From Leucoraja erinacea (Eukaryota): a stretch of DNA of 64,000 nucleotides. The notes beneath the pieces are model-generated. The model was not told the DNA's origin. It saw only the letters and a list, made by a program, of their open reading frames with translations, and ran no database searches. The position numbers and the translations under genes are program-made. Positions 29,506 to 64,000 of this stretch are shown here, piece after piece. The stretch covers positions 16,926,001-16,990,000 of the forward strand of contig NC_073379.1 of assembly GCF_028641065.1 (NCBI RefSeq), given 5' to 3'. The stretch's first letter is position 1. Every line of letters begins with the position of its first letter.

Positions 29506-29788
29506 TCATTGAGTTTTTTCCTTCTCTACCTTCGTGCCCCTGCATATTCTGCAGCAGGACAAGCAACATTTTGTGAGGAGATAGAGGAAAACTGCCACAC
29601 ATGCTCCAATGAACGCCACTACATCCAGGCAATGATATTGGTACCAAGACAGAGAGTGTGCTGCAGGTCGCAAATGTTTGGCTCCTCCATGTCGCATAAC
29701 AAACTCAATCCAGTACACAGATCTTTCCAAAGGACTCATCGGTTGGTCTCGCTGAATTATAGATAACTTCATTGCATTTTCTTTATAC
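29506..29788 (-). CDS. UGT2A: UGT2A-like UDP-glucuronosyltransferase, constant exon 6 (TM helix and ER-retrieval tail)
   Basis: ccctcag| acceptor. [58 protein letters not shown] segment, then KEKTQ* (KxKxx). Confidence 0.95.
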
Positions 29789-29917
29789 CTGAGGGAATAA
29801 AAATAGTCATAGTTTTGCTTGATTTCACTTTATTCTGTCCCACATATCCATGTATCAACTTCCATCTGAATGCTAAGTTTTATTTAGTCAAACTGCTCAT
29901 TACAGATCACAAGAGGT

Positions 29918-30215
29918 CGGCAGGATGGCGCAGCGGTAGAGTTGCTACCTTACAGCGCCAGAGACCCGGGTTCGATCCTGACTTACGGGTGCTTTCTGTA
30001 AAGAGTTTTATGTTCACCCTGGGACCGCATGGGTTTTCTCCAGTTGCTTAGGTTTCCTCCCACAATCCCAAGATGTACAGGTTTGCGGGTTAATTGGCTT
30101 CAGTAAAATTGTAAATCGTCCCTAGTGTGGATTAGTTTTAGTGTGCGGGTCGGTGCGGGTTTTTGGGTCGAAGGGCCAGTTTCCACACTGTATCTCGAAA
30201 GTCTGAAGACTAAAG
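29918..30215 (+). mobile_element. HE1-like V-SINE
   Basis: ggcgcagcggtagagttgctaccttacagcgccagagacccgggttcgatcc head, V-domain, CR1-like tail. Confidence 0.82.
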
Positions 30216-30249
30216 ACTAAAATTACATAAAGAAAGACAAAAGTGTTTT

Positions 30250-30610
30250 CAAGGTTTTTTGACTGAACTAGACTGGGGGGCAAGCTTGAGAAGAGCGTAT
30301 TTACAACAGGTACTGGCGACTGAATTGTCTTCAGTTGTCACCGACAGGGTCATAGCTTGTCGTAGCTTGTCGCGGGTGGACAGAGGTTGACTTCGGTTGT
30401 CGTAGGTTGTCACCTGTGCGGTCGTAGATTGTCATAGTTGTGGTCGTAGGTGGGTCACCGGTTGTCAGTAGCTTGCCGTATCTTGACGTTGACTAGGTGG
30501 TAGGTTGGCGTAGACATTGTCGTGGGGGGGCCCAGTCACCATTTTTTCGGCGACCTGCTACGACTATGACAGTCGCCGGCAGTCGCCTAAAAAATCGCCT
30601 ATGTGGGATT
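30250..30610. mobile_element. Partial Harbinger-like MITE with (gtcgtag)-rich internal repeats
   Basis: Repeated ttgtcgtag/gtcgcc motifs ending in cgcctatgtggga, similar to the ...aagtgggacagg TIR family. Confidence 0.5.
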
Positions 30611-30691
30611 TTTATGTGAGGGAGATTAAAGCAATACACCCTGCAATAAATTGAACATTAATTCCGCCTCCCCTTAATGCTGTACTCTTAC

Positions 30692-30911
30692 CTCGTGTCA
30701 TTAATCACAGTGTTGAGGGCAACAACCAACTCCTGTGTACTCAATGTAGCAAAATTAACAACCACAGCAACTCCCTTTGCTTTCATGTGAGCCATGTTAT
30801 CAGGCTGATCAGCAAACAGAGGAATGCCGAGCATAGGCACCCCGTGATAGATGGCTTCATATATCCCATTGGTACCACCATGAGTGATGAATACTTTTGT
30901 TTTGGGATGCC
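30692..30911 (-). CDS. UGT2A: UGT2A-like constant exon 5 (UDPGT signature)
   Basis: 220 nt, AG/GT bounded; [38 protein letters not shown]. Confidence 0.96.
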
Positions 30912-32260
30912 CTGAAATTAAAGTCACAGAAAATTACTCGAGTATAGAAGCTGGGAGGTCATGTTACAGTTATATAAGGCAATGGTGAGGCCGCACTTAG
31001 AGTTTTGTGTTCCGTTCTGGGCACAATGTTATAGGAAAGATGTTCTCAACCTGGAGAGGGTGCAGAGAAAATCTATGAGCATGTTGCTCGATTCTAGGGT
31101 CTGAGCTATAGGGAGAGGTTGAGTAGGCTGGGACTCTATTCCCTGGATCTTATAGAGGATGTAAAATCATGAGAGGAATAGATCGGATAGACGCACAGAT
31201 TCTCTTGCCCAGAGTGAGGGATTGAGAACCAGAGGGCATAGGTTTAAGGTGAAGGGGGAAAGATTTTATAGGAATCTGAGGGGTAACCTTTTCATGCAAA
31301 GGGTGGTTGGTGTATGGAATGAGCTGCCGGAGGAGGCAGTTGAGGCTGGGACTATTAAACATTTAATAAGCAAATAGACAGGTACATGGATAGGACAGGT
31401 TTGGAGGGATATGGGTCTAATGCAGGCAAGTGGGATGTGCAGATGGGACATGCTGGTTGGTGTGGGCAAGTTGGGCCGAAGGGCCTGTTTCCACACTGTC
31501 TAAAATAAATTATGACTTAAGCCTGACGTCAACTAAACTAATAGACTGTTGCATGGATAAATGTTCAAATTATTGTAAAACACATGGTTTATTCATTTGT
31601 TCGTGGGTGTGGACATTGACAGCAAAGCCAGCATTTATTGACCTTCCCCATTTGTTCTTGAGCTGTGGAGGTAGTTAAACAGCAACCATGTTTGTTGTAG
31701 AAACAAGAAACTGTAGATGCTGGATTACACAAAAGGACACAAAGTGCTGGAGAAACTCAACGGGTCAAGTAGCACCTCTGGAGAACATGGATGGGTGACA
31801 TTTTGGGCGGAATGATTCCGTCTTAAGAAGGGCCCTAACCTTAAACCAAAATTCAGTGTCTATGCCTATGGAATGAGCTGCCAGTGGAGGTAAATGAGGC
31901 AGGTAATATAACAGCATTTCAAAGACATTTGGATAGTGACATGGTTAGGAAAGGTTTAGAGGGATATGGGCCAAACGTGTGTAAAGGGGACTAGCTTAGA
32001 TGGGGCATCTTGGTTGGCATGGCAGAAGGGTCTGTTTCCGTACTGTAGGACTCTAGAGGGCATAGGCTTAGGTGAGAGGGGCCATATTTAAGAGAGACCT
32101 CAGGGCAACTTTTTCCACTCAGTGGTTCATCCTTATTTGGAATGAACTGCCAGAGCAGAGGAAGCTTCAAGAAACCCCAGCCCACAAGGAATCAACAATT
32201 TCCTTTCAAACCTTCAGCAAAGGAGGAAAGATAAAGATAAATACAAATACTGTCCCTTAC

Positions 32261-32348
32261 CAAGCAAGTCATTCTGAGGCAGCCATTTGTACAGCTTTGT
32301 GTTTGGTGCCAATGTTTTTGGCTTCTCACCAGCGTATCTCCAAAGAAC
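32261..32348 (-). CDS. UGT2A: UGT2A-like constant exon 4
   Basis: 88 nt, AG/GT bounded; [29 protein letters not shown]. Confidence 0.95.
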
Positions 32349-32800
32349 CTGAGAATGGTAGCAATCATGACAATGAATACAAAAACGGGATATAACGTGT
32401 TACTTAAGTCTTTGGGAATTGGGTCTGAAAATGTACTTATTATTCTGCAGCCCATGCTGGGGGGGGGGGGGGGGAGCACACAGAGGTCCAGTAATGGTTT
32501 CCAGAGACCTGGGTTCGATCCTGACTATGGGTGCTCTCTGTACAGAGTTTGTACATTCTCCCTGTGACCGGCGTGGGTAAAAGACAGTAAAGACAGGATC
32601 TCAGGATTTATCCACCCCCACCATATATCAGGCACCCCCTGTCCTCTCTGTGAAAGGCCCCACTTTGACCTCGTCACTTCGGATCCCACAAAATTAGAGT
32701 GGAAGCGAGTCATCCTCAACAACAAGAAAAACAATGTTTTTGTCAGGCAGTATCTGTGGAGGGATAGGACAGGTGATGTTGCAGGTCAGAATCCTTCTAC

Positions 32801-33100
32801 AGGGTGGCACGGTGGCACAGCGGTAGAGTTGCTGCCTTACAGCACCAGAGACCTGGGTTTGATCCAGACTATGGGTGCTTGCTGCACGGAGTTTGTACGT
32901 TCTCCCCATGACCTGCGTGGGTATTCCCCAGGTCTCCAGTTTCTTCCCACACTCCAAAGACTTACAGCTGTGTAGGTTAATCAATTATGATAAAAATTGT
33001 AAATTGTCCCTAGTATGTGCTCGTGTATGCGGATCACTGGTCAGCGTGGCCACAGATGACTGAAGGGCCTGTTTCCGCACTGTATTGCTAAACTAAACTT
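32801..33100 (+). mobile_element. HE1-like V-SINE
   Basis: gggtggcacggtggcacagcggtagagttgctgccttacagc... to gggcctgtttccgcactgtattgctaaactaaac. Confidence 0.82.
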
Positions 33101-33858: not shown

Positions 33859-33990
33859 CTTTTGCGGAATCTTCCCCAGTGCTTCAGCGACCAAATCGGC
33901 CTTCTCAGTGGTGAGGTTCTTTATCATTGAGCCCAGGGAAAACACCACAATGCCATGCTCTCCAGAGCTCTGAACAAATTCCTCCATCTC
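33859..33990 (-). CDS. UGT2A: UGT2A-like constant exon 3
   Basis: 132 nt, AG/GT bounded; [44 protein letters not shown]. Confidence 0.96.
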
Positions 33991-34105
33991 CTGCAGAGCA
34001 AACGTGTATCCAGTCACACAGAGGTGTCTCAGATTGAGAGCGATGTTTGGACAGACTTTCGAATTGAGCACAAGGCTGTTTCTTAAATGGGCTTGTGCTC
34101 CCTTA

Positions 34106-38256: not shown

Positions 38257-38405
38257 CTGAGGCAGCGGGTTTGCTGGTTGACAGTGTAGTCCTCCTACAA
38301 ATACGAAATTGGGCAGAAATGGGCGAGGAAATTCAAAGTCCCAATATGTTCGAATCAGCCAAATGTCCGCCTTGCCCATTGTCTCACAGAGCGTTGTTGG
38401 TTCAC
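38257..38405 (-). CDS. UGT2A: UGT2A-like constant exon 2
   Basis: 149 nt (the UGT2-specific exon, absent as a separate exon in UGT1); (G)[49 protein letters not shown]; phase-1 acceptor. Confidence 0.96.
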
Positions 38406-39085: not shown

Positions 39086-39783
39086 TCTCTGAACTAAACT
39101 TCACACAGTATCTCAAAACTGAACTAAACTTGAAGATTATTCAAAGTTACTGCTAAAAGTTATCTTCAATTGTGAATATTAACTCTCCTTCTCTGTTGCA
39201 TTCCTCATTGCCATTCTACCACAGTGTGATTTCGCTTGTCAATGCATTTTGTTTTTGCTTTAGGCAAATTGGATTTCCCTTGAAATTGAAGCCAGCTTTA
39301 ACTTTGTTTACTGGAGCCACCTTGTGGCATTTCTTTCATAGAAACATAGAAAATATGTGCAGGAGTAGGCCATTCGGCCCTTCGAGCCCGAACCGCCATT
39401 CAATATGATCATGGCTGATCATCCAAGTGACCAAATCTAAAAAGTAAAGGAGAGATGTAAATAGCAGGGGGGGGAAAGGAGAAATGGCTAGAGATGGAGA
39501 TCGAATGTGTAGCAAGGAACTGCAGATGCTGGTTCAAACCGAAGATAGACACAAAAAGCTGGAGTAACTCAGTGGGACAGGCAGCATCTCTGGAGAAAAG
39601 GAATGGGCGATGTTTCGGGTCAAGACCCTTCTTCAGACCGAAAAGTCTTTCAGTCCGACCCGCTGAGTTCCTCCAGCATTTTGTTTCTCTCTTCTATGAG
39701 AATCATTAACAATGAATATTTTGTGATTTTGCTGGAACTCATTGAGGGAACTTGGTATGAAGGAGCGACAGTGTACAATTCAC

Positions 39784-41196
39784 CTAAAGCTTTGATGTAG
39801 TACAAGTCCCAGTCACACCAGAACTGTTTACGAATCCAACTATAGGGGAAGGTGTAAAGAACGTTTCGCATTCTCTCAGTAAAATACATCTTATCAGAAA
39901 ACGCAGACAGTGCGGTGGGGAGATAGGGGAGAGGGGCTGGGATCTGTCCACAGAGTCGTTCCACTGCTAATCCCGGGGGAATGTCAGAGAGAAGACAAAG
40001 GGAATTTCCAGCTCCAGAGCCAGGAGATACCTGCAGCGAAGCATGGGGCCAGAGAGCATGACTTTGAGCTCCGATTCCCGCAAATTCTGCACCAGTTTGT
40101 CGTTCTTAACGATCCGGTCACAGACCCCTCGGGTCAATAGTTCCATTTGTCACGATCGATGAGAACCTCCTGTAAGCATCCCAATAACACAGGTGAGACT
40201 TCCCATGCATCCAGAATGAGAAGCCTCCCTCTTGAATTCAACGTATGCCACGCTGGCAAAAGGCACTTGAAACACTTGGAAGTTTACCGGTGAAAGCTCA
40301 AGGGCCTGTCCCACTTTGGGCGTCATTTGCGTGCCATTTACGCGCCATCCTAAAAATTGGTTGTCACGTTGTGATGCCCGCATGGCGGTGGTGAGGCGTA
40401 GTGGCGTATGAAGTGACGCGCGGTAATGTGCGGCTCACCACGAGTTTGGAATGCTCAAAATCCTTGCGCACCACCTGCGTGACGTGTCCCTTGCACACGC
40501 TGATGTACTGACACCGTATGCGTAGCGTGTGGTGATGCATGGTTACGCACAGTGACGCACAAACATTGCCTATGCTAATTTCTTAAGCGTCACCGTGCAT
40601 CAACGTCAGTAACCATGCGCCGACTGTACGTCGTCAACACGCCATTTGCTAGTCATTTGAGCGCCGCACCACGTGACCACCCGGGTATAAAGTGCGCGTA
40701 GTTTTGAAATTTTTTCACAGTATCTTTGATTTTCACTGGGAAAATCCTTGCCATGGAGATCAGACTAAGTACGAACGACATCACAAATGACTCTCAAAAG
40801 AAGCAGGGCCCTCAAGAGCACTTGACGGCAGTCACTAACGGTCTGTCGCATAAATGACGCGCAAATGACGCCCATGTGGCAAGGCCTTTCAGTGTGGTTG
40901 ATGTCAAGTGCAGTTTAATGAACCACAGCAGTGATACTGGAGAGAAGGAATGGGTGACGTTCCGGGTCGAGAGCGGGGAAGGCTTCAAGAAGACCCAATC
41001 TGAAGGAGGGTCGCAGCCCGAAACGTCACCCATGCCTTCTCTCCAGAGATGCTGCCTGTCCGGCTGAGTTACTCCAGCATTTTGTGTCCATCTTTGGTTT
41101 AAGCCAGCATCTGCAGTTCCTTCTTACAGTAACACTGTGGCCCCTCGCCAGCAGAGTGTTAATGATGGGTTTCAAGTTAATCCAGTGGCTGCCCTC
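39784..41196 (-). pseudogene. UGT2A-like variable exon 1 pseudo-exon disrupted by TE insertions
   Basis: EGSHWINLKPIINTLLARGHSVTV (41125-41196), SPVNFQVFQVPF (about 40260-40297), ERLCGQIPAPLPYLP...YYIKALG|gtgaat (donor intact at 39784). Contains stops and frameshifts, a MITE at 40301-40888 and Penelope pLTRs at about 40937-41125; a CR1 abuts the 5' end. Confidence 0.88.
40301..40888. mobile_element. PIF/Harbinger-like MITE inserted in the UGT pseudo-exon
   Basis: agggcctgtcccactttgggcgtcatttgcg ... cgcaaatgacgcccatgtggcaaggcctt; TCA TSD at 40298-40300 and 40889-40891. Confidence 0.8.
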
Positions 41197-41650
41197 CCCT
41201 TTAAGACCTCTATCTAACTCTCTCTTGAAAGTATCCAGAGAACCGGCCTCCACTGCCCTCTGAGGCAGAGAATTCCACTGACTCACAACTCTCTGTGAAA
41301 AAAAGTGTTTCCTCGTCTCCGTTCTAAATAGCTTACCCCTTATTCTTAAACTGTGGCCGCTGGTTCTGGACTCCCCCAACATCGGGAACATGTTTCCTGC
41401 CTCTAGCGTGTCCAAACCTTTAATAATCTTATTTGTTTCAATAAGATCCCATCCCATCCTTCTAAACTCCAGAATATACAAGCCCAGCCGCTCCATTCTT
41501 TCATCATATGACAGTCCCGCCATCCCGGGAATTAACCTCGTAAACCTACGCTGTACTCCCTCAGTCCCTCAATAGCAAGAATTTCCTTCCTCAAATTAGG
41601 GGACCAAAACTGCACACCAGGTGTGGTCTCACTAGGGCTCTGTACAACTG
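41197..41650 (-). mobile_element. CR1/HER1 LINE fragment
   Basis: MAGLSYDERMERLGLYILEFRRM..DLIETNKIIKGLDTLEAGNMFP...WNSLPQRAVEAGSLDTFKRELD. Confidence 0.88.
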
Positions 41651-47428: not shown

Positions 47429-48303
47429 ACAAAGGCAGCATTCTTCTTCACTATGCCCAATCCGCTTGTGCTTTTCAAGGAGCGACTGCGTGAACTTGAC
47501 CCTCGGGGTCCCTGTCTGGGCGGCACAGTGGTGCAGTGGTAATGCTGCTTGCTGCCCCACAGCTCCCAGAGACCCAGGTTCGATCCCGACCTCGGGTGCT
47601 GTCTGTACGGCGTTTGTACGTTCTCCCCGTGACGTGTAGGAAGGAAATGCAGCTGCTGGTGGTCTACACCGTAGACACAAAATGCTGGAGTAACTAGGCG
47701 GGGCAGGCAACATCTCTGGAGAGAAGGAATGGTTGACGTTTCAGGTCGAGATCCTTCTTCAGTCTGTGAAGTATCTCGACCCGAAACGTCGCCCATTCCT
47801 TCTCTCCAGTAATGCTGCCTCACCCGTTGAGTTACTCTTGGTTTGTTTTTGTCTATTTCCTTGTGACCTGCGTGGGTTTTCTTCGAGTGCTCCGGTTTCC
47901 TCCCACATTGCAAAGACGTGTAGGTTTGTCGGCTGTAGAACTGCAGGAGTAGCCCAGCAGGTCAGGTCTCTGGAAGACATGGATAGGTGACGCTTCGGGT
48001 CGAGACCTTTCTTCAGACCTACCCATGTTCTCCCGAGATGCTGCCTGACCTGCTGAGTTTCTCCAGCACTTTACGTCCTTACAGGCTTGAAGATTAATTG
48101 GCGTCTACAAGTTGCCTCGAACGTGCAAGGGGCGGAGTGGGTGAGAAAGTGCGGGGACGGAGAACTAGTGCGAACTGTTGATCGCTGGACGGCGTAGACT
48201 CGGTGGGGCGAAGGGCCTGTTTCCACGCTGTATCTCTAAACTAAATTAAAAATGAAAACCAAACGTGTGCTGCCCACACAGTGGAATGAGCCAAACCACC
48301 TAC

Positions 48304-49012
48304 CTGAAGCCTCGCTGTAATAAGCATCCCAATCTCCCCAGGACCGCAGGAACACCCAGTCGTACATGAAGGAGTAGAGCAGATTCTGAGACCTCTCGAC
48401 GAAGGACATCTTGTCGGACAACTCTGACAGAATGACTGGGACATAGGAGGGCGGGGTTGGCATCTGTCCACAGTGTCTCTCCAACGTAAAGCCCGGGGAG
48501 AACCGCAGGGTGAAGACGAGGGGGACCCCAAGCTTCAAAGCCAGGAGATCCCCGCACACCTGCACTGGGTCAGAGAGCAGGACCTTGAACTTGGCCTCCC
48601 GTAGTCTCTGCACCAGCTCCTCGTTCTTCAGTATCCCGTCGCACACCTGCATGCCCAGCTCCCTCCCCTTGGCCATCAGCGCCGAAAACACCCTGTACCT
48701 GCCCCAAAAGGACAAGTCCGGTGCCTGGTAAAGGGAGACGTCCAGCCAGTTGTTCAAAAAGGCCTCCGTGGTCTCGTGTGTAAACGGCACTTGGAACACT
48801 TCCAACTTCATGGCCGAGGACTCGGAGTTGTTTACAAACAGCGAGGCTGAATTCACGACCACTGTGACATCGTGGCCCCTCGCCATCAACCCGGCAATTA
48901 TGTACTTCAAGTTAATCCAGTGGCTTCCTTCTGTCGGCCAGATCAACACGTTCTCCCCAGCGACCCCGGGCAGGGTGAGATACATCACCAACAGCAGATG
49001 CCTGGCATGCAT
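48304..49012 (-). CDS. UGT2A: UGT2A-like variable exon 1, type A copy 1 (intact)
   Basis: ATG at 49012 (MHARHLLLVMYLTLPGVAG signal peptide), ENVLIWPTEGSHW (catalytic His), KVLLSDPV (catalytic Asp), YYSEASG|gtaggt. 709 nt, phase 1, matches exon 2. Confidence 0.92.
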
Positions 49013-50326
49013 GGTGTTCGCCAGCAATCCAACCTCAGTGCCCGATCAGCCGCCCTGCACTCTGATCAGAATAAAAACCTCCCCTTTGAAACTTCCTGGT
49101 GGACACAGTTTCCACTCCGGCATGAACAGGAACAAGGAAATAGAAATCCTGGACTGGATTGAGAATGCTGATCTAACTTCAGTGCAGAGGAACAGCAGGG
49201 AAACTGGCCCCACTCACTGCCCACAAAGTCTACGCCCGTCCGCACCAGTCACTTCAGTTGAGTTTATTGTCACATGTACCGAGGTACAGTGAAAAACTTT
49301 TGTTGAGCGTTAACCAGCCAGCGGAAACACAATGCACCAGCCATAGTTCTATGTTTAAGAAGGAACTGCAAATGCTGAAGAAGGGTCTCGACCCGAAACG
49401 CCACCCATTCTTTCTCTCCAGAAATGCTGCCTGTCCCGCTGAGTTACTCCAGCTTCTAAAACAAATCTATTTTCGGTTTGAACCAGCATCTGCAATTCCT
49501 TTCCCACACATTATTCCAGCTTGGGTTCTAATTGAGTGCCTTACCAATGTTCAGATTCGTGCCAGAGAAGCAGAGAAGTGGTGGCGCAGTGAGCACCAAA
49601 GACCTTGGTTCCATCCTGGCTATGGGTGTTTGTGGAGTTTGTACGTTCTCCCCGTGACAGTCTGAGTAATAGAGTGAAAGAGTGTGGAAACAGGCCCATA
49701 GGCACAACTTGCCCACACCGCCCAACATGTCCAAGCTACACTAGTCCCACCTGTCTGCATTTGGTCCATATCCCTCCAAACCAACCACGCATTCCTATTA
49801 AATCTTTTCCCCTTCACCTTAAACCAATGTCCTCTGGTCCTTGATTCACCTAGGCTGGGCAAGAGATTCTGATAGGATACAGCGTTAGTCTTCTTAGATG
49901 GCACCTTCCAAAGTCATGACTTCCACCTGCTGCAAGGACAATGACAGCAAGAACATGGGAACACCACCAACCAAGCCTCACAACATCCCGACTTGGAAAT
50001 ACATCACAGTTCTTTCATTGTTGCTGGGTCAAAAACCTACAACTCTCTTTCTGAAACAATCATGAGTGTGCCCGCAGTAGCAGTTCAAGAAGGCAGCTCA
50101 CCACCACCCTCTCAATGGCAATTATGGATGGACCATTAAATGCTGGCTCAGTTTACGAACCGTACGTACCTTCAATTAATACATTGACAAAATGGTGAAG
50201 AGTATACTTTAAAATAACATAGCTGACATTGTTACATCAGTAGGTATAACGCTTAATTTCTACATGTTAATTGGTAATTTTGTAATCGATTCACTTAACA
50301 AAAGGAAAAGAGACAGACAACCTCAC

Positions 50327-51032
50327 CTAAAGCTTCACTATAATAGGAGTTCCATTCATCCCACATCTGTTTGCACATCCAGTCGTACATGAAGGTGTAA
50401 AGAACGTTCTGAACTCTCGCAATGAAAGACATCTCATTAGAAAACTCGGAGAGGGTCGCCGGTACATAGGAGGGAGGGGCTGGGATCTGTCCGCAGAGTC
50501 TCTCTATTGCAAATGCTGGGGAGAATCTCAGAGAGAAGATGAAGGGAATTCCCAGCTTCAGAGCCAGGAGATCCCCACAGTTATGCACGGGGTCAGAGAG
50601 CAGAACTTTAAACTTCGAATCTCGCAGTTTTTGCACAAGCCTTTCATTCTTTATCACCCCGTCACAGATGCCTTTAGTAAGTTTGATTCCAGGTTCCATG
50701 GCCGCTGAGAATCTTCTGTATGCTTGCCAGTGGGTTAATTGTGATTTCTCGTAGATAAAGAATTCCATGACTCTATTCATGTAAGCCTGAAATTTGTCAC
50801 TTGTAAACGGCACTTGAAACACTTCAAATTTCACTGGTGAGGGTTCAGAATAGTTGATGTAAACTGCAGCGGAATTCACAGCCACAGTAACACTGTGACC
50901 TCTTGCGATCAGCTCATTGATGATGGGTTTCAAGTTAATCCAGTGACTTCCTTCTGCAGGCCAGATCAATATGTTCTCACTAGTTGCCCACTGGAGAAGG
51001 AGAAATCCCAGAAACAGAAGCCTGATCTTCAT
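50327..51032 (-). CDS. UGT2A: UGT2A-like variable exon 1, type B copy 1 (intact)
   Basis: MKIRLLFLGFLLLQWATSENILIWPAEGSHW...KVLLSDPVHNCG...YYSEALG|gtgagg; 706 nt, phase 1. Confidence 0.93.
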
Positions 51033-51963
51033 GATGTCCGTCAGGAACAGTTCTGAGCCCAGGATTCACTAACCTATTAACTAGCTGACAGGACATTGAG
51101 CCTTTTGAGGCACAAGGTGAACTTCCACAAGCAAATAAAGCGTCAGCAAATTCAAAATACCACACTGCACTCAAATGTCCAAGAATGTATCCAGTGATTT
51201 TCGATTCAGTTGTTTGAGCTGATCCCATCTGCATGCGTTTAACCCATATTCCTTTGAAAAGTTAGATTAGTCCAAAAACATTTCCTAAGGTAGAAATGTC
51301 AAAGACTAGAGGGCATAGCTTTAAGGTGGAAGGGTGAGAGTTAAAAGGACACGTGCGGGGCAAGTTTTGTTTCCACAGAGTGGTGGGTGAGTGGAACATG
51401 CTGCCAGGGGTGATGCTGGAGGCAGATATGATAGTGGTATTGAAGGGGCTTTTCAATAGCCACATGGAAATGCAATGAATGGAGGGGAATAGATCAATAG
51501 GTTTTTTTTTGTCTATTTCCCTGTGACTTGCGTGGGTTTTCTTCGAGTGCTCCGGTTTCCTCCCACATTGCAAAGACGTGTAGGTTTGTCGGCTGTAGAA
51601 CTGCAGGAGTAGCCCAGCAGATCAGGTCTCTGGAAGACATGGATAGGTGACGCTTCGGATCGAGACCCTTCTTCGGACCTACCCATGTTCTCCTGAGATG
51701 CTGCCTGACCTGCTGAGTTTCTCCAGCACTTTACGTCCTTCAGGCTTGAAGATTAATTGGCGTCTACAAGTTGCCTCGAACGTGCAAGGGGTGGAGTGGG
51801 TGAGAAAGTGCGGGGACGGAGAACTAGTGCGAACTGTTGATCGCTGGACGGCGTAGACTCGGTGGGGCGAAGGGCCTGTTTCCACGCTGTATCTCTAAAC
51901 TAAATTAAAAATGAAAAACCAAACGTGTGCTGCCCGCACAGCGGAATGAGCCAAACCACCTAC

Positions 51964-52695
51964 CTGAAGCCTCGCTGTAATAAGCATCCCAATCTCCCCA
52001 GGACCGCAGGAACACCCAGTCGTACATGAAGGAGTAGAGCACATTCTGAGACCTCTCGACGAAGGACATCTTGTCGGACAACTCTGACAGAATGACTGGG
52101 ACATAGGAGGGCGGGGTTGGGGCATCGTCATGTCTGAAGGATAGATGCTTCTGTCCACAGTGTCTCTCCAACGTAAAGCCCGGGAGAACCGCAGGGTGAA
52201 GACGAGGGGAACCCCAAGCTTCAAAGCCAGGAGATCCCCGCACACCTGCACTGGGTCAGAGAGCAGGACCTTGAACTTGGCCTCCCGTAGTCTCTGCACC
52301 AGCTCCTCGTTCTTCAGTATCCCGTCGCACACCTGCATGCCCAGCTCCCTCCCCTTGGCCATCAGCGCCGAAAACACCCTGTACCTGCCCCAAAAGGACA
52401 AGTCCGGTGCCTGGTAAAGGGAGACGTCCAGCCAGTTGTTCAAAAAGGCTTCCGTGGTCTCGTGTGTAAACGGCACTTGGAACACTTCCAACTTCATGGC
52501 CGAGGACTCGGAGTTGTTTACAAACCACTGTGACATCGTGGCCACTGTGACATCGTGGCCCCTCGCCATCAACCCGGCAATTATGTACTTCAAGTTAATC
52601 CAGTGGCTTCCTTCTGTCGGCCAGATCAACACGTTCTCCCCAGCGACCCCGGCCAGGGTGAGATACATCACCAACAGCAGATGCCTGGCATGCAT
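51964..52695 (-). pseudogene. Variable exon 1, type A copy 2 (frameshifted as assembled)
   Basis: Versus A1: 1-bp loss in a G-run at about 52180, net +27-nt insertion at 52121-52149, and an in-frame -3 rearrangement. Donor intact. Confidence 0.75.
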
Positions 52696-54022
52696 GGTGT
52701 TCGCCAGCAATCCAACCTCAGTGCCCGATCAGCCGCCCTGCACTCTGATCAGAATAAAAACCTCCCCTTTGAAACTTCCTGGTGGACACAGTTTCCACTC
52801 CGGCATGAACAGGAACAAGGAAATAGAAATCCTGGACTGGATTGAGAATGCTGATCTAACTTCAGTGCAGAGGAACAGCAGGGAAACTGGCCCCACTCAC
52901 TGCCCACAAAGTCTACGCCCGTCCGCACCAGTCACTTCAGTTGAGTTTATTGTCACATGTACCGAGGTACAGTGAAAAAACTTTTGTTGAGCGTTAACCA
53001 GCCAGCGGAAACACAATGCACCAGCCATAGTTCTATGTTTAAGAAGGAACTGCAAATGCTGAAGAAGGGTCTCGACCCGAAACGCCACCCATTCTTTCTC
53101 TCCAGAAATGCTGCCTGTCCCGCTGAGTTACTCCAGCTTCTAAAACAAATCTATTTTCGGTTTGAACCAGCATCTGCAATTCCTTTCCCACACATTATTC
53201 CAGCTTGAGTTCTAATTGAGTGCCTTACCAATGTTCAGATTCGTGCCAGAGAAGCAGAGAAGTGGTGGCGCAGTGGCGCAACAGTAGAGCACCAAAGACC
53301 TTGGTTCCATCCTGGCTATGGGTGTTTGTGGAGTTTGTACGTTCTCCCCGTGACAGTCTGAGTAATAGAGTGAAAGAGTGTGGAAACAGGCCCATAGGCA
53401 CAACTTGCCCACACCGCCCAACATGTCCAAGCTACACTAGTCCCACCTGTCTGCATTTGGTCCATATCCCTCCAAACCAACCACGCATTCCTATTAAATC
53501 TTTTCCCCTTCACCTTAAACCAATGTCCTCTGGTCCTTGATTCACCTAGGCTGGGCAAGAGATTCTGATAGGATACAGCGTTAGTCTTCTTAGATGGCAC
53601 CTTCCAAAGTCATGACTTCCACCTGCTGCAAGGACAATGACAGCAAGAACATGGGAACACCACCAACCAAGCCTCACAACATCCCGACTTGGAAATACAT
53701 CACAGTTCTTTCATTGTTGCTGGGTCAAAAACCTACAACTCTCTTTCTGAAACAATCATGAGTGTGCCCGCAGTAGCAGTTCAAGAAGGCAGCTCACCAC
53801 CACCCTCTCAATGGCAATTATGGATGGACCATTAAATGCTGGCTCAGTTTAAGAACCGTACATACCTTCAATTAATACATTGACAAAATGGTGAAGAGTA
53901 TACTTTAAAATAACATAGCTGACATTGTTACATCAGTAGGTATAACGCTTAATTTCTACATGTTAATTGGTAATTTTGTAATCGATTCACTTAACAAAAG
54001 GAAAAGAGACAGACAACCTCAC

Positions 54023-54728
54023 CTAAAGCTTCACTATAATAGGAGTTCCATTCATCCCACATCTGTTTGCACATCCAGTCGTACATGAAGGTGTAAAGAA
54101 CGTTCTGAACTCTCGCAATGAAAGACATCTCATTAGAAAACTCGGAGAGGGTCGCCGGTACATAGGAGGGAGGGGCTGGGATCTGTCCGCAGAGTCTCTC
54201 TATTGCAAATGCTGGGGAGAATCTCAGAGAGAAGATGAAGGGAATTCCCAGCTTCAGAGCCAGGAGATCCCCACAGTTATGCACGGGGTCAGAGAGCAGA
54301 ACTTTAAACTTCGAATCTCGCAGTTTTTGCACAAGCCTTTCATTCTTTATCACCCCGTCACAGATGCCTTTAGTAAGTTTGATTCCAGGTTCCATGGCCG
54401 CTGAGAATCTTCTGTATGCTTGCCAGTGGGTTAATTGTGCTTTCTCGTAGATAAAGAATTCCATGACTCTATTCGTGTAAGCCTGAAATTTGTCACTTGT
54501 AAACGGCACTTGAAACACTTCAAATTTCACTGGTGAGGGTTCAGAATAGTTGATGTAAACTGCAGCGGAATTCACAGCCACAGTAACACTGTGACCTCTT
54601 GCGATCAGCTCATTGATGATGGGTTTCAAGTTAATCCAGTGACTTCCTTCTGCAGGCCAGATCAATATGTTCTCACTAGTTGCCCACTGGAGAAGGAGAA
54701 ATCCCAGAAACAGAAGACTGATCTTCAT
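54023..54728 (-). CDS. UGT2A: UGT2A-like variable exon 1, type B copy 2 (intact)
   Basis: 706 nt, phase-1 donor gtgagg. Differs from B1 at 3 residues (R4S, M to T, S to A). Confidence 0.92.
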
Positions 54729-55272
54729 GATGTCCGTCAGGAACAGCTCTGAGCCCAGGATTCACTAACCTATTAACTAGCTGACAGGGCATTGAGCCTT
54801 TTGAGGCACAAGGTGTACTTCCACAAGCAAATAAAGCGTCAGCAAATTCAAAATACCACACTGCACTCAAATGTCCAAGAATGTATCCAGTGATTTTCGA
54901 TTCAGTTGTTTGAGCTGATCCCATCTGCATGCGTTTAACCCATATTCCTTTGAAAAGTTAGATTAGTCCAAAAACATTTCCTAAGGTAGAAATGTCAAAG
55001 ACTAGAGGGCATAGCTTTAAGGTGGAAGGGTGAGAGTTTAAAGGACACGTGCGGGGCAAGTTTTGTTTCCACAGAGTGGTGGGTGAGTGGAACATGCTGC
55101 CAGGGGTGATGCTGGAGGCAGATATGATAGTGGTATTGAAGGGGCTTTTCAATAGCCACATGGAAATGCAATGAATGGAGGGGAATAGATCACTGAAGCA
55201 GATTACTTTAACGCGTCTTCATGTTCAGCTGTGGGCAGAATTCCAGGGGTGTATGAAGGGGGTGAGGGGGTA

Positions 55273-55934
55273 CCGCAGGAACACCCAGTCGTACATGAAG
55301 GAGTAGATGCACATTCTGAGACCTCTCGACGAAGGACATCTTGTCGGACAACTCTGACAGAATGACTGGGACATAGGAGGGCGGGGTTGGCATCTGTCCA
55401 CAGTGTCTCTCCAACGTAAAGCCCGGGAGAACCGCAGGGTGAAGACGAGGGGAACCCCAAGCTTCAAAGCCAGGAGATCCCCGCACACCTGCACTGGGTC
55501 AGAGAGCAGGACCTTGAACTTGGCCTCCCGTAGTCTCTGCACCAGCTCCTCTGCTTCAGTATCCCGTCGCACACCTGCATGCCCAGCTCCCTCCCCTTGG
55601 CCATCAGCGCCGAAAACACCCTGTACCTGCCCCAAAAGGACAAGTCCGGTGCCTGGTAAAGGGAGACGTCCAGCCAGTTGTTCAAAAAGGCTTCCGTGGT
55701 CTCGTGTGTAAACGGCACTTGGAACACTTCACCTTCATGGCCGAGTCTACTCGGAGTTGTTTGGAAACCACTGTGACATCGTGGCCACTGTGACATCGTG
55801 GCCCCTCGCCATCAACCGGCAATTATGTACTTCAAGTTAATCTCTGGCTTCCTTCTGTCGGCCAGATCAACACGTTCTCCCCCAACCCCGGGCAGGGTGA
55901 GATACATCACCAACAGCAGATGCCTGGCATGCAT
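55273..55934 (-). pseudogene. Variable exon 1, type A copy 3 (frameshifts, 3'-truncated, no donor)
   Basis: Homology to A1 stops after WVFLR at about 55273; several indels. Confidence 0.8.
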
Positions 55935-57269
55935 GGTGTTCGCCAGCAATCCAAAAATCAGTGCCCGATCAGCCGCCCTGCACTCTGATCAGAATAAAAA
56001 CCTCCCCTTTGAAACTTCCTGGTGGACACAGTTTCCACTCCGGCATGAACAGGAACAAGGAAATAGAAATCCTGGACTGGATTGAGAATGCTGATCTAAC
56101 TTCAGTGCAGAGGAACAGCAGGGAAACTGGCCCCACTCACTGCCCACAAAGTCTACGCCCGTCCGCACCAGTCACTTCAGTTGAGTTTATTGTCACATGT
56201 ACCGCGGTACAGTGAAAAACTTTTGTTGAGCGTTAACCAGCCAGCGGAAACACAATGCACCAGCCATAGTTCTATGTTTAAGAAGGAACTGCAAATGCTG
56301 AAGAAGGGTCTCGACCCGAAACGCCACCCATTCTTTCTCTCCAGAAATGCTGCCTGTCCCGCTGAGTTACTCCAGCTTCTAAAACAAATCTATTTTCGGT
56401 TTGAACCAGCATCTGCAATTCCTTTCCCACACATTATTCCAGCTTGAGTTCTAATTGAGTGCCTTACCAATGTTCAGATTCGTGCCAGAGAAGCAGAGAA
56501 GTGGCGGCGCAGTGGCGCAACAGTAGAGCACCAAAGACCCAGGTTCCATCCTGGCTATGGGTGTTTGTGGAGTTTGTACGTTCTCACCCGTGACAGTCTG
56601 AGTAATAGAGTGAAAGAGTGTGGAAACAGGCCCATAGACACAACTTGCCCCCACCGCCCAACATGTCCAAGCTACACTAGTCCCACCTGTCTGCATTTGG
56701 TCCATATCCCTCCAAACCAACCACGCATTCCTATTAAATCTCTTTTCCCCTTCACCTTAAACCTATGTCCTCTGGTCCTTGATTCACCTAGGCTGGGCAA
56801 GAGATTCTGATAGGATACAGCGTTAGTCTTCTTAGATGGCACCTTCCAAAGTCATGACTTCCACCTGCTGCAAGGACAATGACAGCAAGAACATGGGAAC
56901 ACCACCAACCAAGCCTCACAACATCCCCGACTTGGAAATACATCACAGTTCTTTCATTGTTGCTGGGTCAAAAACCTACAACTCTCTTTCTGAAAAAATC
57001 ATGAGTGTGCCCGCCCGCAGTAGCAGTTCAAGAAGGCAGCTCACCACCACCCTCTCAATGGCAATTATGGATGGACCATTAAATGCTGGCTCAGTTTACG
57101 AACCGTACGTACCTTCAATTAATACATTGACAAAATGGTGAAGAGTATACTTTAAAATAACATAGCTGACATTGTTACATCAGTAGGTAAAACGCTTAAT
57201 TTCTACATGTTAATTGGAAATTTTGCATTCAAGTCATTTAACAAAAGGAAAGGAAAATGTCAACCTCAC

Positions 57270-57975
57270 CTAAAGCTTCACTATAATAGGAGTCCCAACC
57301 ACGCCATATCCGTTTGCACATCCAGTCGTACATGAATGTGTAAAGAACGTTCTGAACTCTCGCAATGAAAGACATCTCATTAGAAAACTCGGAGAGGGTC
57401 GCCGGTACATAGGAGGGAGGGGCTGGGATCTGTCCGCAGAGTCTCTCCACTGTAAATCCCGGGGAGAATCTCAGAGAGAAGATGAAGGGAATTCCCAGCT
57501 TCAGAGCCAGGAGTTCCCCACAGCGATGCACGGGGTCAGAGAGCACGACTTTAAACTTCGAATCTCGCAGTTTTTGCACAAGTTTTTCATTCTTCATCAC
57601 CCCGTCACAGATGCCTTTGCTAAATTTCTTTCCACGTTCTATCATTGCTGAAAAACTTCTGACTGCTTGCCAGTGGGATACTTCTGGTTTTTCTTAAATC
57701 CAGAATTCCTAAAGGAAATCAATGAAATCTCTGAACCTGTCTGTGGTAGACGGCACTTGAAACACTTCAAAATTCACTGGTGAGGGTTCAGAATTGTCGA
57801 TGTAAAGCGTAGCTGAATTCATAGCCACAGTAACACTGTGACCTCTTGCGATCAGCTCATTGATGATGACTTTCAAGTTAATCCAGTGGCTTCCTTCAGC
57901 AGGCCAGATCAATATGTTCTCACTAGTTGCCCTCTGGAGAAGGAGAAATTCCAGAAACAGAAGCCTGATCGTCAT
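57270..57975 (-). pseudogene. Variable exon 1, type B copy 3 (in-frame stops)
   Basis: 706 nt with intact donor, but TAG at 57709-57711 and TAA at about 57694 (FIDFL*EFWI*EK). Confidence 0.78.
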
Positions 57976-58655
57976 GATGTCCGTCAGGAACAGTTCTGAG
58001 CCCAGGATTCACTAACCTATTAACTAGCCGACAGGACATTGAGCCTTTTGAGGCACAAAGTTCACTTCCACAAGCAATAAAAGTGTCAGCAAATTCAAAA
58101 TCCCGCACTGCACTTAGATTACCAAGAATGGATCCAGGGTTTTCCGATTCAGTTGTTTGAGCTGATCCCATCTGCATGCGTTTCACCCATATTCCTTTTA
58201 AAAATTAGATTAGTCCAAAAACGTTTCCTAAGGTAGAAATGTCAAAGACTAGAGGGCATAGCTTTAAGGTGGAAGGGTGAGAGTTTAAAGGACACGTGCG
58301 GGGCAAGTTTTGTTTCCACAGAGAGTGGTGGGTGCGTGGAACATGCTGCCAGGGGTGATGCTGGAGGCAGATATGATAGTGGTATTGAAGGGGCTTCTCA
58401 ATAGGCACATGGAAATGCAATGAATGGAGGGGAATGGATCATATGAAGCAGATTAGTTTAACTCGCTTCATATTCAGCCATGGGCGGAATTCCCTGGGTG
58501 TATGAGGGGGGGTCACATTCCTCCCATGTTTTGAGAGGTGGGGGACAATCGAACCCCCCCATTTTGTAATCCAATTTTGCTTTTGGGCTGGAGACAGTGG
58601 GGGTGGGCCTGTTAAGTGCTGTTTCTAAACTAAATTGTTGAGCCAAACCACCTAC

Positions 58656-59364
58656 CTGAAGCCTCGCTGTAATAAGCATGACATTGTCCTTCAAGTACCG
58701 CAGGAACACCCAGTCGTACATGAAGGAGTAGAGCACATTCTGAGACCTCTCGACGAAGGACATCTTGTCGGACAACTCTGACAGAATGACTGGGACATAG
58801 GAGGGCGGGGTTGGCATCTGTCCACAGTGTCTCTCCAACGTAAAGCCCGGGGAGAACCGCAGGGTGAAGACGAGGGGAACCCCAAGCTTCAAGCCAAGGA
58901 GATCCCCGCACACCTGCACTGGGTCAGAGAGCAGGACCTTGAACTTGGCCTCCCGTAGTCTCTTTGCTTGCTCCTCGTTCTTCAGTATCCCGTCGCACCT
59001 GCATGCATGCCCAGCTCCCTCCCCTTGGCCATCAGCGGGTAAAACACCCTGTACCTGCCCCAAAAGGACAAGTCCGGGTCCTGGTAAAGGGAGACGTCCA
59101 GCCAGTTGTTCAAAAAGGCTTCCGTGGTCTCGTGTGTAAACGGCACTTGGAACACTTCCAACTTCATGGCCGAGGACTCGGAGTTGTTTACAAACCACTG
59201 TGACATCGTGGCCACTGTGACATCGTGGCCCCTCGCCATCAACCCGGCAATTATGTACTTCAAGTTAATCCAGTGGCTTCCTTCTGTCGGCCAGATCAAC
59301 ACGTTCTCCCCAGCGACCCCGGCAGGGTGAGATACATCACCAACAGCAGATGCCTGGCATGCAT
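58656..59364 (-). pseudogene. Variable exon 1, type A copy 4 (frameshifted; noisy sequence)
   Basis: Split into ORFs 58982-59302 and 58458-59198; donor gtaggt retained; scattered indels. Confidence 0.7.
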
Positions 59365-60765
59365 GGTGTTCGCCAGCAATCCAACCTCAGTGCCCGATCA
59401 GCCGCCCTGCACTCTGATCAGAATAAAAACCCCCCCCTTGAAACTTCCTGGTGGACACAGTTTCCACTCCGGCATGAACAGGTCTAAGGAAATAGAAATC
59501 CTGGACTGGATTGAGAATGCTGATCTAACTTCAGTGCAGAGGATTTACAGGAAACTGGCCCCACTCACAAAATCAAGCCCACAAAGTCTACGCCCCCGTC
59601 CGCACCAGTCCATGTGGTCAGTTTATAGTTTATGGTCACATGTACCGAGGTACAGTGAAAAACTTTTGTTGAGCGTTAACCAGCCAGCAGAAACACAATG
59701 CACCAGCCATAGTTCTATGTTTAAGAAGGAACTGCAAATGCTGAAGAAGGGTCTCGACCCGAAACGCCACCCATTCTTTCTCTCCAGAAATGCTGGGTAG
59801 TGTCCCGCTGAGTTACTCCAGCTTCTAAAACAAATCTATTTTCGGTTTGAACCAGCATCAGCAATGGGCAATCCCACACATTATTCCAGCTTGAGTTCTA
59901 ATTGAGTGCCTTACCAATGTTCAGATTCGTGCCAGAGAAGCAGAGAAATGGCTATCGCAGTGGCGACAACAGTAGAGCACCAAAGACCTTGGTTCCATCC
60001 TGGCTATGGGATGTTTGTGGAACCTGTACGGAATCCCCGTGACACATATGACTACAAGAGTAATAGAGTGAAAGAGTGTGGAAACTTACCCATAGATCCT
60101 CAACTTGCCCACACCCCCAACATCAGGTCAGGAGGGTACACTTTCTCCACCTGTCTGCATTTGGGCAGCCTATCCCTGCAAACCAAGCTCGACGCATTCC
60201 TATTAAATGGCTTTTCCCCTTCACAGGTAAATTCCAACCATCCTCTGGTCCTTGATTCACCTAGGCTGGGCAGTTAGATTCTGATAGGATACAGCGTTAG
60301 TCTTCTTAGATGGCACCTTCCAAAGTCATGACTTCCACCTGCTGCAAGGACAAAGACAGCAAGAACATGGGAACACCACCAACCTGAGAGCTGCCCTCCC
60401 ATCCTCACAACATCCCAACTTGGAAATACATTACCGTTCTTTCATTGTTGCTGGGTCAAAATCCATGAACTTTCTTTCTAAAACCATCATGAGTGTGCCC
60501 ACACCTCAAGGGCTGCAGCAGTTCAAGAAGGCAGCTCACCACCACCTTCTCAAGGGCAACTAAGGATGGGCCATTAAATGCTGGCTCAGTTTACGAACCG
60601 TACGTACCTTCAATGAATACCTTGTCAAAATGGTGAAGAGTATACTTTAAAATAATATAGCTGACATTGTTACGTCAGTAGTTAAAAGGTGTTAATTTCT
60701 ACATGTTAATTGGAAATTTTGCATTCAAGTCATTTAACAAAAGGAAAGGAAAATGTCAACCTCAC

Positions 60766-61471
60766 CTAAAGCTTCACTGTAATAGGAGTCCCATTCACGC
60801 CACATCCGTTTACACATCCAGTCGTACATGAATGTGTAAAGAACGTTCTGAACTCTCTCAGTAAAAGACATCTTATCGGTAAACTCTGAGAGGATCGCCG
60901 GTACATAGGAGGGAGGGGCTGGGATCTGTCCGCAGAGTCTCTCCACTGTAAATCCCGGGGAGAATCTCAGAGAGAAGATGAAGGGAATTCCCAGCTTCAG
61001 AGCCAGGAGCTCCCCACAGCGATGCACGGGGTCAGAGAGCAGAACTTTAAACTTCGAATCTCGCAGTTTTTGCACAAGTTTTTCATTCTTCATCACCCCG
61101 TCACAGATGCCTTTGGTAAATTTCTTTCCATGTTCTATGATTGCTGAAAATTTTCTGTATGCTTGCCAGTGGGATAATTGTGATTTTTCGTAGATCCAGA
61201 ATTCCAAAAGGACATCCATGAAATCTCTGAAACTGTCAGTGGTAAACGGCACTTGAAATACTTCAAAATTCACTGGTGAGGGTTCAGAATAGTCGATGTC
61301 AAGTGTAGCTGAATTCACAGCCACAGTAACACTGTGACCTCTTGCGATCAGCTCATTGATGATGACTTTCAAGTTAATCCAGTGGCTTCCTTCAGCAGGC
61401 CAGATCAATATGTTCTCACTAGTTGCCCTCTGGAGAAGGAGAAATTCCAGAAACAGAAGCCTGATCTTCAT
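60766..61471 (-). CDS. UGT2A: UGT2A-like variable exon 1, type B copy 4 (intact, diverged subtype)
   Basis: MKIRLLFLEFLLLQRATSENILIWPAEGSHW...SDPVHRCGE...YYSEALG|gtgagg; 706 nt, phase 1. Confidence 0.92.
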
Positions 61472-61967
61472 GATGTCCGTCAGGAACAGTTCTGAGCCCA
61501 GGATTCACTAACCTATTAACTAGCCGACAGGACATTGAGCCTTTTGAAGCACAAAGTTCACTTCCACAAGCAAATAAAGTGTTAGCAAATTCAAAAAACC
61601 ACACTGCACTTTAATGTCCAAGAATGTATCCAAGGTTTTCTGATTCATTTGTTTGAGCTGATCCCATCTGCATGCGTTTAACCCATATTCCTTTGAAAAG
61701 TTAGATTAGTCCAAAAACATTTCCTAAGGTAGAAATGTCAAAGACTAGAGGGCATAGCTTTAAGGTGGAAGGGTGAGAGTTTAAAGGACACGTGCGGGGC
61801 AAGTTTTGTTTCCACAGAGTGGTGGGTGAGTGGAACATGCTGCCAGGGGTGATGCTGGAGGCAGATATGATAGTGGTATTGAAGGGGCTTTTCAATAGCC
61901 ACATGGAAATGCAATGAATGGAGGGGAATAGATCACTGAAGCAGATTACTTTAACGCGTCTTCATGT

Positions 61968-62684
61968 TCAGCTGTGGGCAGAATTCCAGGGGTGTATGAA
62001 GGGGGTGAGGGGGCACCGCAGGAACACCCAGTCGTACATGAAGGAGTAGAGCACATTCTGAGACCTCTCGACGAAGGACATCTTGTCGGACAACTCTGAC
62101 AGAATGACTGGGACATAGGAGGGCGGGGTTGGCATCTGTCCACAGTGTCTCTCCAACGTAAAGCCCGGGGAGAACCGCAGGGTGAAGACGAGGGGAACCC
62201 CAAGCTTCAAAGCCAGGAGATCCCCGCACACCTGCACTGGGTCAGAGAGCAGGACCTTGAACTTGGCCTCCCGTAGTCTCTGCACCAGCTCCTCGTTCTT
62301 CAGTATCCCGTCGCACACCTGCATGCCCAGCTCCCTCCCCTTGGCCATCAGCGCCGAAAACACCCTGTACCTGCCCCAAAAGGACAAGTCCGGTGCCTGG
62401 TAAAGGGAGACGTCCAGCCAGTTGTTCAAAAAGGCTTCCGTGGTCTCGTGTGTAAACGGCACTTGGAACACTTCCAACTTCATGGCCGAGGACTCGGAGT
62501 TGTTTACAAACCACTGTGACATCGTGGCCACTGTGACATCGTGGCCCCTCGCCATCAAGCCGGCAATTATGTACTTCAAGTTAATCCAGTGGCTTCCTTC
62601 TGTCAACGGCCAGATCAACACGTTCTCCCCAGCGACCCCGGGCAGGGTGAGATACATCACCAACAGCAGATGCCTGGCATGCAT
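61968..62684 (-). pseudogene. Variable exon 1, type A copy 5 (open ORF but 3'-truncated, canonical donor lost)
   Basis: ATG at 62684; homology ends at WVFLR (about 62016), then reads CPLTPFIHPWNSAHS* into the spacer. Confidence 0.72.
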
Positions 62685-64000
62685 GGTGTTCGCCAGCAAT
62701 CCAACCTCAGTGCCCGATCAGCCGCCCTGCACTCTGATCAGAATAAAAACCTCCCCTTTGAAACTTCCTGGTGGACACAGTTTCCACTCCGGCATGAACA
62801 GGAACAAGGAAATAGAAATCCTGGACTGGATTGAGAATGCTGATCTAACTTCAGTGCAGAGGAACAGCAGGGAAACTGGCCCCACTCACTGCCCACAAAG
62901 TCTACGCCCGTCCGCACCAGTCACTTCAGTTGAGTTTATTGTCACATGTACCGAGGTACAGTGAAAAACTTTTGTTGAGCGTTAACCAGCCAGCAGAAAA
63001 ACAATGCACCAGCCGTAGTTCTATGCTTAAGAAGGAACTGCAAATGCTGAAGAAGGGTCACGACCCGAAACGCCACCCATTCTTTCTCTCCAGAAATGCT
63101 GCCTGTCCCGCTGAGTTACTCCAGCTTCTAAAACAAATCTATTTTCGGTTTGAACCAGCATCTGCAATTCCTTTCCCACACATTATTCCAGCTTGAGTTC
63201 TAATTGAGTGCCTTACCAATGTTCAGATTCGTGCCAGAGAAGCAGAGAAGTGGTGGCGCAGTGGCGCAACAGTAGAGCACCAAAGACCTTGGTTCCATCC
63301 TGGCTATGGGTGTTTGTGGAGTTTGTACGTTCTCCCCGTGACAGTCTGAGTAATAGAGTGAAAGAGTGTGGAAACAGGCCCATAGGCACAACTTGCCCAC
63401 ACCGCCCAACATGTCCAAGCTACACTAGTCCCACCTGTCTGCATTTGGTCCATATCCCTCCAAACCAACCACGCATTCCTATTAAATCTTTTCCCCTTCA
63501 CCTTAAACCAATGTCCTCTGGTCCTTGATTCACCTAGGCTGGGCAAGAGATTCTGATAGGATACAGCGTTAGTCTTCTTAGATGGCACCTTCCAAAGTCA
63601 TGACTTCCACCTGCTGCAAGGACAATGACAGCAAGAACATGGGAACACCACCAACCAAGCCTCACAACATCCCGACTTGGAAATACATCACAGTTCTTTC
63701 ATTGTTGCTGGGTCAAAAACCTACAACTCTCTTTCTGAAACAATCATGAGTGTGCCCGCAGTAGCAGTTCAAGAAGGCAGCTCACCACCACCCTCTCAAT
63801 GGCAATTATGGATGGACCATTAAATGCTGGCTCAGTTTACGAACCGTACGTACCTTCAATTAATACATTGACAAAATGGTGAAGAGTATACTTTAAAATA
63901 ACATAGCTGACATTGTTACATCAGTAGGTATAACGCTTAATTTCTACATGTTAATTGGTAATTTTGTAATCGATTCACTTAACAAAAGGAAAAGAGACAG

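Follow-up and report, generated by a model that had tools for sequence, protein, structure and literature searches.

One constant region below an array of first exons

The 64-kb window analyzed here (Leucoraja erinacea, contig NC_073379.1, positions 16,926,001 to 16,990,000, numbered below from its first letter) carries a UDP-glycosyltransferase (UGT) locus with one set of constant exons 2 to 6 and a tandem array of alternative first exons, all on the minus strand. Exon 2 (149 nucleotides (nt), 38257..38405) is the predicted common acceptor for the first exons and is followed by exon 3 (132 nt, 33859..33990), exon 4 (88 nt, 32261..32348), exon 5 (220 nt, 30692..30911), which holds the UDP-sugar signature region, and the coding part of exon 6 (283 nt, 29506..29788), which encodes a transmembrane segment, a KxKxx end and the stop, and matches positions 411-496 of the Pfam UDPGT family. 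The splice ends are canonical, with AG acceptors on exons 2-6 and GT donors on exons 2-5. With first exons of 706-709 nt, this gives a six-exon layout whose exon sizes equal those of mammalian UGT2 genes. No second set of exons 2-6 was found in the window and 100 kb of adjoining DNA (164 kb in all), and a genome-wide search with exon 5 returned 31 matches, one at 100% and the other 30 at no more than 62% identity; in other words, exon 5 is single copy in this genome. With one constant set, a UGT2B-type cluster of whole genes, each with its own exons 2-6, is excluded here.

Above this constant region lie 16 first exons, ten in the window and six more within the next 15 kb, bearing out an earlier note on this DNA that had placed a single exon 2-6 set below at least ten of them. 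Their order outward from the constant region is X0, A1, B1, A2, B2, A3, B3, A4, B4, A5, then B5, A6, A7, B6, B7, B8. X0 (39776..41199) is a decayed B-like exon that repeat insertions have broken into two parts (41199-41116 and 40299-39776); it is frameshifted and without its start. Units 1-5 of a tandem A+B cassette array occupy 47840..64000, and the variable region runs on to G000:C3:17005233. Within the window, A1 (48304..49012, 709 nt), B1 (50327..51032, 706 nt), B2 (54023..54728) and B4 (60766..61471) are intact. Among the A copies only A1 keeps the loop after beta-2 in its ancestral form, B1 and B4 are identical to the N-termini of the RefSeq models P0262 and P0254, and B2 shares 232 of 235 amino acids (aa) with B1. 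As for the remaining copies, A2 (51964..52695) has a rewritten loop, a 1-nt deletion and a 27-nt insertion; A3 (55272..55934) has its 3' end and donor deleted, as well as scattered indels; B3 (57270..57975), of a B4-like subtype, has two in-frame stops; A4 (58656..59364) is frameshifted as assembled; and A5 (62015..62684) keeps an open frame, having lost its 3' end and donor from the A3 breakpoint on. Beyond the window, B5 has one stop, A6 and A7 are open and have identical exons, B6 and B8 are frameshifted, and B7 is intact.

Each of the four intact copies among the ten in the window carries, as the earlier note had described, an ATG, the catalytic His30/31 and Asp147/148, a phase-1 GT donor that fits exon 2, and a hydrophobic N-terminus, as judged by hydropathy and not by a signal-peptide program. 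Over the whole locus, seven of the 16 first exons (A1, B1, B2, B4, A6, A7 and B7) read in frame with exons 2-6 into proteins of 525-526 aa with the KxKxx end. The regular A/B alternation that had been noted, in units of 3.2-3.7 kb, describes the five units of the window (A-to-A spacing 3239-3702 nt) and breaks down beyond it, where two lone A and three lone B copies follow. Similarly, only units 1, 2 and 5 reach near-identity (at least 99%) along the full A+B unit; units 3 and 4 resemble unit 1 at 94-99% in their A exons and upstream flanks, and B1 at just 88-90% in their B exons. A 292-aa frame (L001:8071-8946, minus strand) that resembles the endonuclease of a long interspersed nuclear element lies between A7 and B6, where the young array gives way to an older B-only block.

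Family assignment and existing annotation

The encoded enzymes have the hallmarks of UGTs, namely the catalytic His and Asp, the hydrophobic N-terminus, and a C-terminal membrane anchor with a dilysine KxKxx, and A1, B1, exon 5 and exon 6 score above the cut-off for Pfam UDPGT (PF00201). We place the locus in UGT2 by its top named matches, in which shark and ray UGT2A1-like models come first and tetrapod UGT2A1/2A2 next; the trees discussed below contained no UGT1, UGT2B or UGT5 rows. Over its 289 aa, the constant region matches that of three RefSeq Leucoraja erinacea UGT2A1-like isoforms (isoforms X1-X3) at 100% identity, that of Amblyraja at 98.6%, that of Rhinoraja at 94.8%, and those of platypus and elephant UGT2A2 at 71%. 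The first exons of the three skate isoforms are B1, B4 and B7, each matching over 235 of 235 aa. A UGT2 backbone with a shared constant region in a cartilaginous fish, as the earlier note had proposed, is therefore supported by the RefSeq isoforms, and existing annotation already shows part of the shared-exon design, both in this skate and in sharks and rays. Among 17 shark and ray species, 14 have at least two records with one identical constant region, and in four of these the second record is a two-domain model; Mustelus, Pristiophorus and M. hypostoma stand outside this count. Other species have 2-7 distinct first-exon domains each among the retrieved records.

The two-domain models in RefSeq (693-738 aa) occur in sharks, rays and mammals, and are joined at an AG just ahead of the Glu-Gly-Ser-His codons. 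This AG is present here at about 48930 (A1) and 50953 (B1), phase-compatible with the exon-1 donors. The shark and ray models of 693/694 aa lack exon 3, like one mammalian model, which suggests projection between annotations rather than independent RNA evidence.

Probable splicing of the first exons to exon 2

Evidence on the joining of first exons comes from contigs of run X19, which is from a relative (organism D) and is taken, by guess, to be RNA data. One 1312-nt contig of the constant region lies on exon 2 only and ends two letters (AG) above it, while an A contig and a B contig each extend exactly 28 letters beyond their exon end. A 31-mer graph is expected to show this geometry where a single exon 2 follows several exons that all end in AG. 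The depths agree: A (14.4) and B (37.6) add up to 52, against 54.3 on the exon-2 contig and 2.2 on an intron contig. The contig geometry strongly indicates that A and B exons are both spliced to one exon 2 in this relative.

We read the locus, with a probability of roughly 0.85, as a single UGT2 (UGT2A-type) skate locus in which alternative first exons are spliced to common exons 2-6, giving glycosyltransferases of the endoplasmic reticulum (ER) that differ only in the acceptor pocket. Each first exon would supply a signal peptide and an acceptor-binding N-terminal domain, and its phase-1 donor would join it to exons 2-6, which would add the UDP-sugar domain and the ER anchor. By analogy with known UGT1A and UGT2A loci, each first exon would have its own promoter and be joined to exon 2 by skipping the first exons downstream of it, and the products would presumably be glucuronosyltransferases. 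Cloned zebrafish ugt2a and ugt2b transcripts have a first exon spliced over downstream ones to exon 2 (PMC2819257; this and the other papers are cited from excerpts).

Several points weigh against this reading. The X19 junction rests on geometry in another organism, with the 28 letters undisplayed and the RNA status guessed. In the skate itself no junction read was seen: the raw RNA run X23, about 5% of which was read, had depths of 0-0.1 over exon bins, barely covering the exons and thus uninformative on junctions. Among the RefSeq records retrieved there was no full-length A-type isoform of this species, only the exon-only model P0302, and some of the predicted RefSeq models are plainly chimeric (P0258, P0264) or two-domain. 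Furthermore, the depths on which the array is judged below come from a run (X1) that may be of the assembled individual itself; they are contig depths, which are not copy numbers, and they imply about six B1-type ends against three assembled, so that the assembly may be wrong in the order and number of units.

Reality of the array

Among the outcomes that would overturn it, the earlier note had named a misassembled expansion of one or two A+B units. Run X1 consists of short-read DNA contigs from organism A, which bears the same species label. Two of its single-copy contigs have depths of 16.1 and 22.5, while depth is 130 over the A body, 133 over the A-B spacer and 123 over the B1-type 3' end, or about 6-8 times the single-copy contig depth. 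The 1:1 ratio of A, spacer and B1-type end is what a cassette predicts, and supports the proposal that a two-exon A+B unit was amplified. The X1 contig of the A body ends at 48343, which is the truncation point of A3 and A5, and the donor-side contig has a depth of 72; together these indicate that the 3' deletion of A3 and A5 is real. In addition, the B subtypes differ by 6-12%, nearly without indels. What speaks for an assembly expansion is the identity of the A6 and A7 exons and the substitution pattern of A3 and A4: compared with A6, their segments show a transition/transversion ratio of 0.44-0.5 with 0.54-0.8 indels per substitution, the differences being clustered between stretches that match perfectly, against ratios of 0.9-1.3 and 0.02-0.15 indels per substitution in comparisons of B copies. 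Given the depths, the contig end at the shared breakpoint and the indel-free B differences, we regard an assembly expansion as the source of the array as extremely unlikely. The pattern in A3 and A4 suggests instead that their frameshifts and scattered indels are probably consensus errors.

The array is real, and its assembled detail is uncertain. The comparison with reads reached to 51480, and the lesions of A2-A4, B3, B5, B6 and B8 lie beyond that point. The earlier count of four intact and six damaged copies is correct as assembled, and the A3/A5 deletion and the X0 relic (found also in a DNA contig of organism C) appear real; the degree of exon death was overstated, given the error-like lesions of A3 and A4.

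Age and diversity of the first-exon classes

At the amino-acid level, A and B exons are 58-60% identical, and B1, B4 and B7 are 82-86% identical among themselves. A exons group with A-type exons of Amblyraja and Rhinoraja (support 100) and B7 with an Amblyraja exon (support 97); Amblyraja also has a B1-like N-terminus (134 of 146 aa) and a B4-like exon. Since A, B1, B4 and B7 are all represented in other skates, they are older than this species. These groupings come with a second tree, for which 11 rows were dropped (two chimeras, a frameshift-corrected model, duplicates, one long branch, B3, B5 and A7) and rows more than 98.5% alike were merged, leaving 71 of 98. In this tree A stands apart from B and has no resolved position among elasmobranch exons. 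A first, quick tree had nested A inside B1; this placement was caused by two chimeric Amblyraja models and was rejected. The Amblyraja models P0258 and P0264 combine a B1-like 5' part with an A-type 3' part, and are either annotation artefacts or true crossover hybrid exons. In the electric ray Narcine, four slightly different constant regions (P0121/P0143, P0122, P0146 and P0285) indicate that UGT2 has been duplicated as whole genes too. The retrieved records contained no chimaera protein.

On top of these old classes lies a young layer, made up of units 1, 2 and 5 together with the A segments of A2 and A5-A7. B1, B2 and B5 differ by a few residues at most, and B5 has a stop. As the young copies are about 99% alike, they add dosage rather than specificities. 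The earlier note had seen here a young, lineage-specific expansion of substrate specificities, and this part of it is not supported, as the classes are older than the species. We also considered the related idea of an adaptive expansion in which each copy diverges toward different substrates. The differences among the intact B1, B4 and B7 do cluster, with proportions of nonsynonymous differences (pN) of 0.14-0.16 in codons 51-125 against 0.02-0.06 in codons 1-50 and 126-190, and the derived A loop described below changes predicted pocket positions. However, pairwise comparison of pN with the proportion of synonymous differences (pS) over the three intact pairs gave no excess of pN in codons 51-125 (pN 0.14-0.16, below pS of 0.19-0.26). 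Moreover, the young copies are 0-3 aa apart, B5 has a stop, A3 and A5 lack donors, and the divergent types are matched by exons in other skates, all of which makes such an expansion distinctly unlikely.

We instead suggest that the single shared-exon locus was built in two layers. In the old layer, duplications would have yielded the classes A, B1, B4 and B7 before the skate genera split. In the young layer, unequal crossing-over would have multiplied an adjacent pair of A and B1-type exons about 5-7 times, and deletions and mosaics would have arisen between units; this would have raised copy number and spread one derived A variant, while adding hardly any new acceptor domains. Units 3 and 4, with young-type flanks around older B exons, are mosaics that unequal crossover, conversion or polishing could each explain.

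The doublet could also be older than this, with units 3 and 4 being ancient duplicates whose A halves were homogenized by gene conversion. Such concerted evolution would account for B exons only 88-90% like B1 next to A partners and upstream flanks that stay 94-99% like unit 1. It would also fit the Amblyraja model P0267, which has two identical A domains that differ from A1 in 16 of 236 aa, and run X17 of organism C, in which the A depth of 112 against 35-60 for single-copy contigs points to about two copies. Yet the same mosaic arises if a B1 unit crosses over unequally with a lone B or if reads are polished across copies, and Li and Wu report that conversion is scarce in other Ugt clusters, as far as the excerpt goes (PMC1885805). 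We therefore consider an older, homogenized doublet rather doubtful.

The rewritten loop of the A class

Six of the seven A copies (A2-A7) carry one and the same change, a 17-nt duplication combined with a 20-nt deletion, which rewrites residues 52-58 in frame and makes the loop one residue shorter. In X1 the rewritten loop predominates among A forms; A1, Amblyraja, Rhinoraja and organism D lack it. This loop is otherwise of fixed length: among 75 domain sequences in which its spacing could be measured, 73 have a spacing of 25, and 24 occurs only in A6 and A7. For UGT1A1, Li and Wu give A64, L66 and Y67, which lie 25, 27 and 28 positions past the catalytic His39, as residues of the acceptor pocket (PMC1885805, excerpt). 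The residues at these offsets are A, L and F in A1, and Q, F and V in A6. The A variant would either alter or disable the predicted pocket, and the rewritten A loop is the one new feature of the locus.

In another reading, A may be a silent passenger here, the cassette having spread neutrally or for B1 dosage while the rewritten A copies are dead. This concerns the A copies only and is compatible with the shared-exon locus proposed above. It would fit with the shortening, in six of seven A copies, of a loop of nearly invariant spacing, with the two A copies without a donor, and with the lack of a full-length A isoform of this species among the records retrieved. On the other hand, the frame is kept, A6 and A7 retain His, Asp and donor, A1 is undamaged, and in organism D an A-type exon extends to exon 2. 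On balance we see silent A copies as a serious possibility, though not the favored one.

A more far-reaching scenario is that of a recent adaptive amplification in one skate lineage, in which a template switch remodelled the A loop and the cassette was multiplied about sixfold and homogenized by concerted evolution, first-exon copy number substituting for inducible expression. Elasmobranchs (sharks and rays) have been reported to have lost the xenobiotic sensor PXR (PMC6539745, abstract). A link between this loss and first-exon copy number is speculation, and we hold the scenario as a whole to be very unlikely.

Neighboring sequence and other UGT loci

An exon of a YTH-domain gene lies at G000:C3:16919693-16919821 (minus strand), 6.3 kb before the window start. 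Mammalian UGT2 genes lie between SULT1B1 and YTHDC1 (bioRxiv 10.1101/2021.08.20.457063, excerpt), and on the YTH side, the one covered here, the skate locus is consistent with this synteny. On the same strand as the YTH-domain exon, the window has an acidic exon at 1020-1535 with no Pfam match. This exon is presumably YTHDC1-like. A broken non-LTR (long terminal repeat) retroelement, with frames that by inspection are reverse transcriptase- and RNase H-like, lies at 14899-17876 (plus strand). About 75 kb past the array, at L010:609-1370 (plus strand), we noted the first exon of an adenylate kinase-like gene with a P-loop motif, again by inspection.

Elsewhere in the genome, about 20 UGT matches lie at G000:C33:20.24-20.53 Mb, C17:20.72-20.74 Mb and C20:4.65-4.66 Mb, mostly as single open frames of 534-583 aa, which points to clustered intronless UGT genes. 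These bear some resemblance to Ugt5, described from teleosts and amphibians (PMC2819257, excerpt). At G000:C7:44.00-44.08 Mb, three long first-exon-like matches are each followed by their own exon-5-like match, as in a whole-gene UGT duplication; if this cluster is UGT1, then UGT1 is without the shared-exon design in this skate.

Relation to known loci and significance

Variable/constant Ugt2a clusters with lineage-specific duplication and birth-and-death evolution have been described from mammals, birds, lizard, frog and zebrafish (PMC1885805, PMC2819257, excerpts). The vertebrate clusters, such as mammalian UGT2A1/2A2 and zebrafish ugt2a1-4 and ugt2b1-4, share with the skate locus the tandem first exons of about 710 nt, the five constant exons, the acceptor domain on exon 1, the pseudo-exons and the adjoining YTH-domain gene. 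They differ in the number of first exons, which the same excerpts put at two in mammals, three in birds and four per zebrafish cluster against 16 here, and in that the near-identical recent cassette array is found in the skate locus. The closest parallel to the cassette is in zebrafish Ugt1a, where a pair of unlike variable exons (a1-a2 and a3-a4) was likewise duplicated as a unit; that is UGT1 rather than UGT2, with two units compared with about five to seven in the skate, and the excerpt contains no report of 99% identity (PMC1885805). The UGT2A1-like isoform sets of sharks and rays in RefSeq (for example XP_055488176-178, XP_032874326-334 and XP_038660352-359) represent the same type of locus. 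In the shark and ray records retrieved, the A exons of this species are unjoined to the constant region and the cassette repeat is undescribed. We found no paper on an elasmobranch UGT2 locus in the literature searched, in which subscription journals are thinly covered.

Current annotation is thus incomplete for the A class, and the number of first exons in this skate probably varies. The locus shows a variable-exon array caught in the midst of amplification, and its first exons outnumber those that the excerpts of PMC1885805 and PMC2819257 give for any Ugt2 cluster. It leaves the understanding of UGT loci unchanged, as an unusually large example. At the same time, finding the variable/constant UGT2A layout in cartilaginous fishes, which those two papers do not cover in the parts cited, supports the layout being ancestral for jawed vertebrates.

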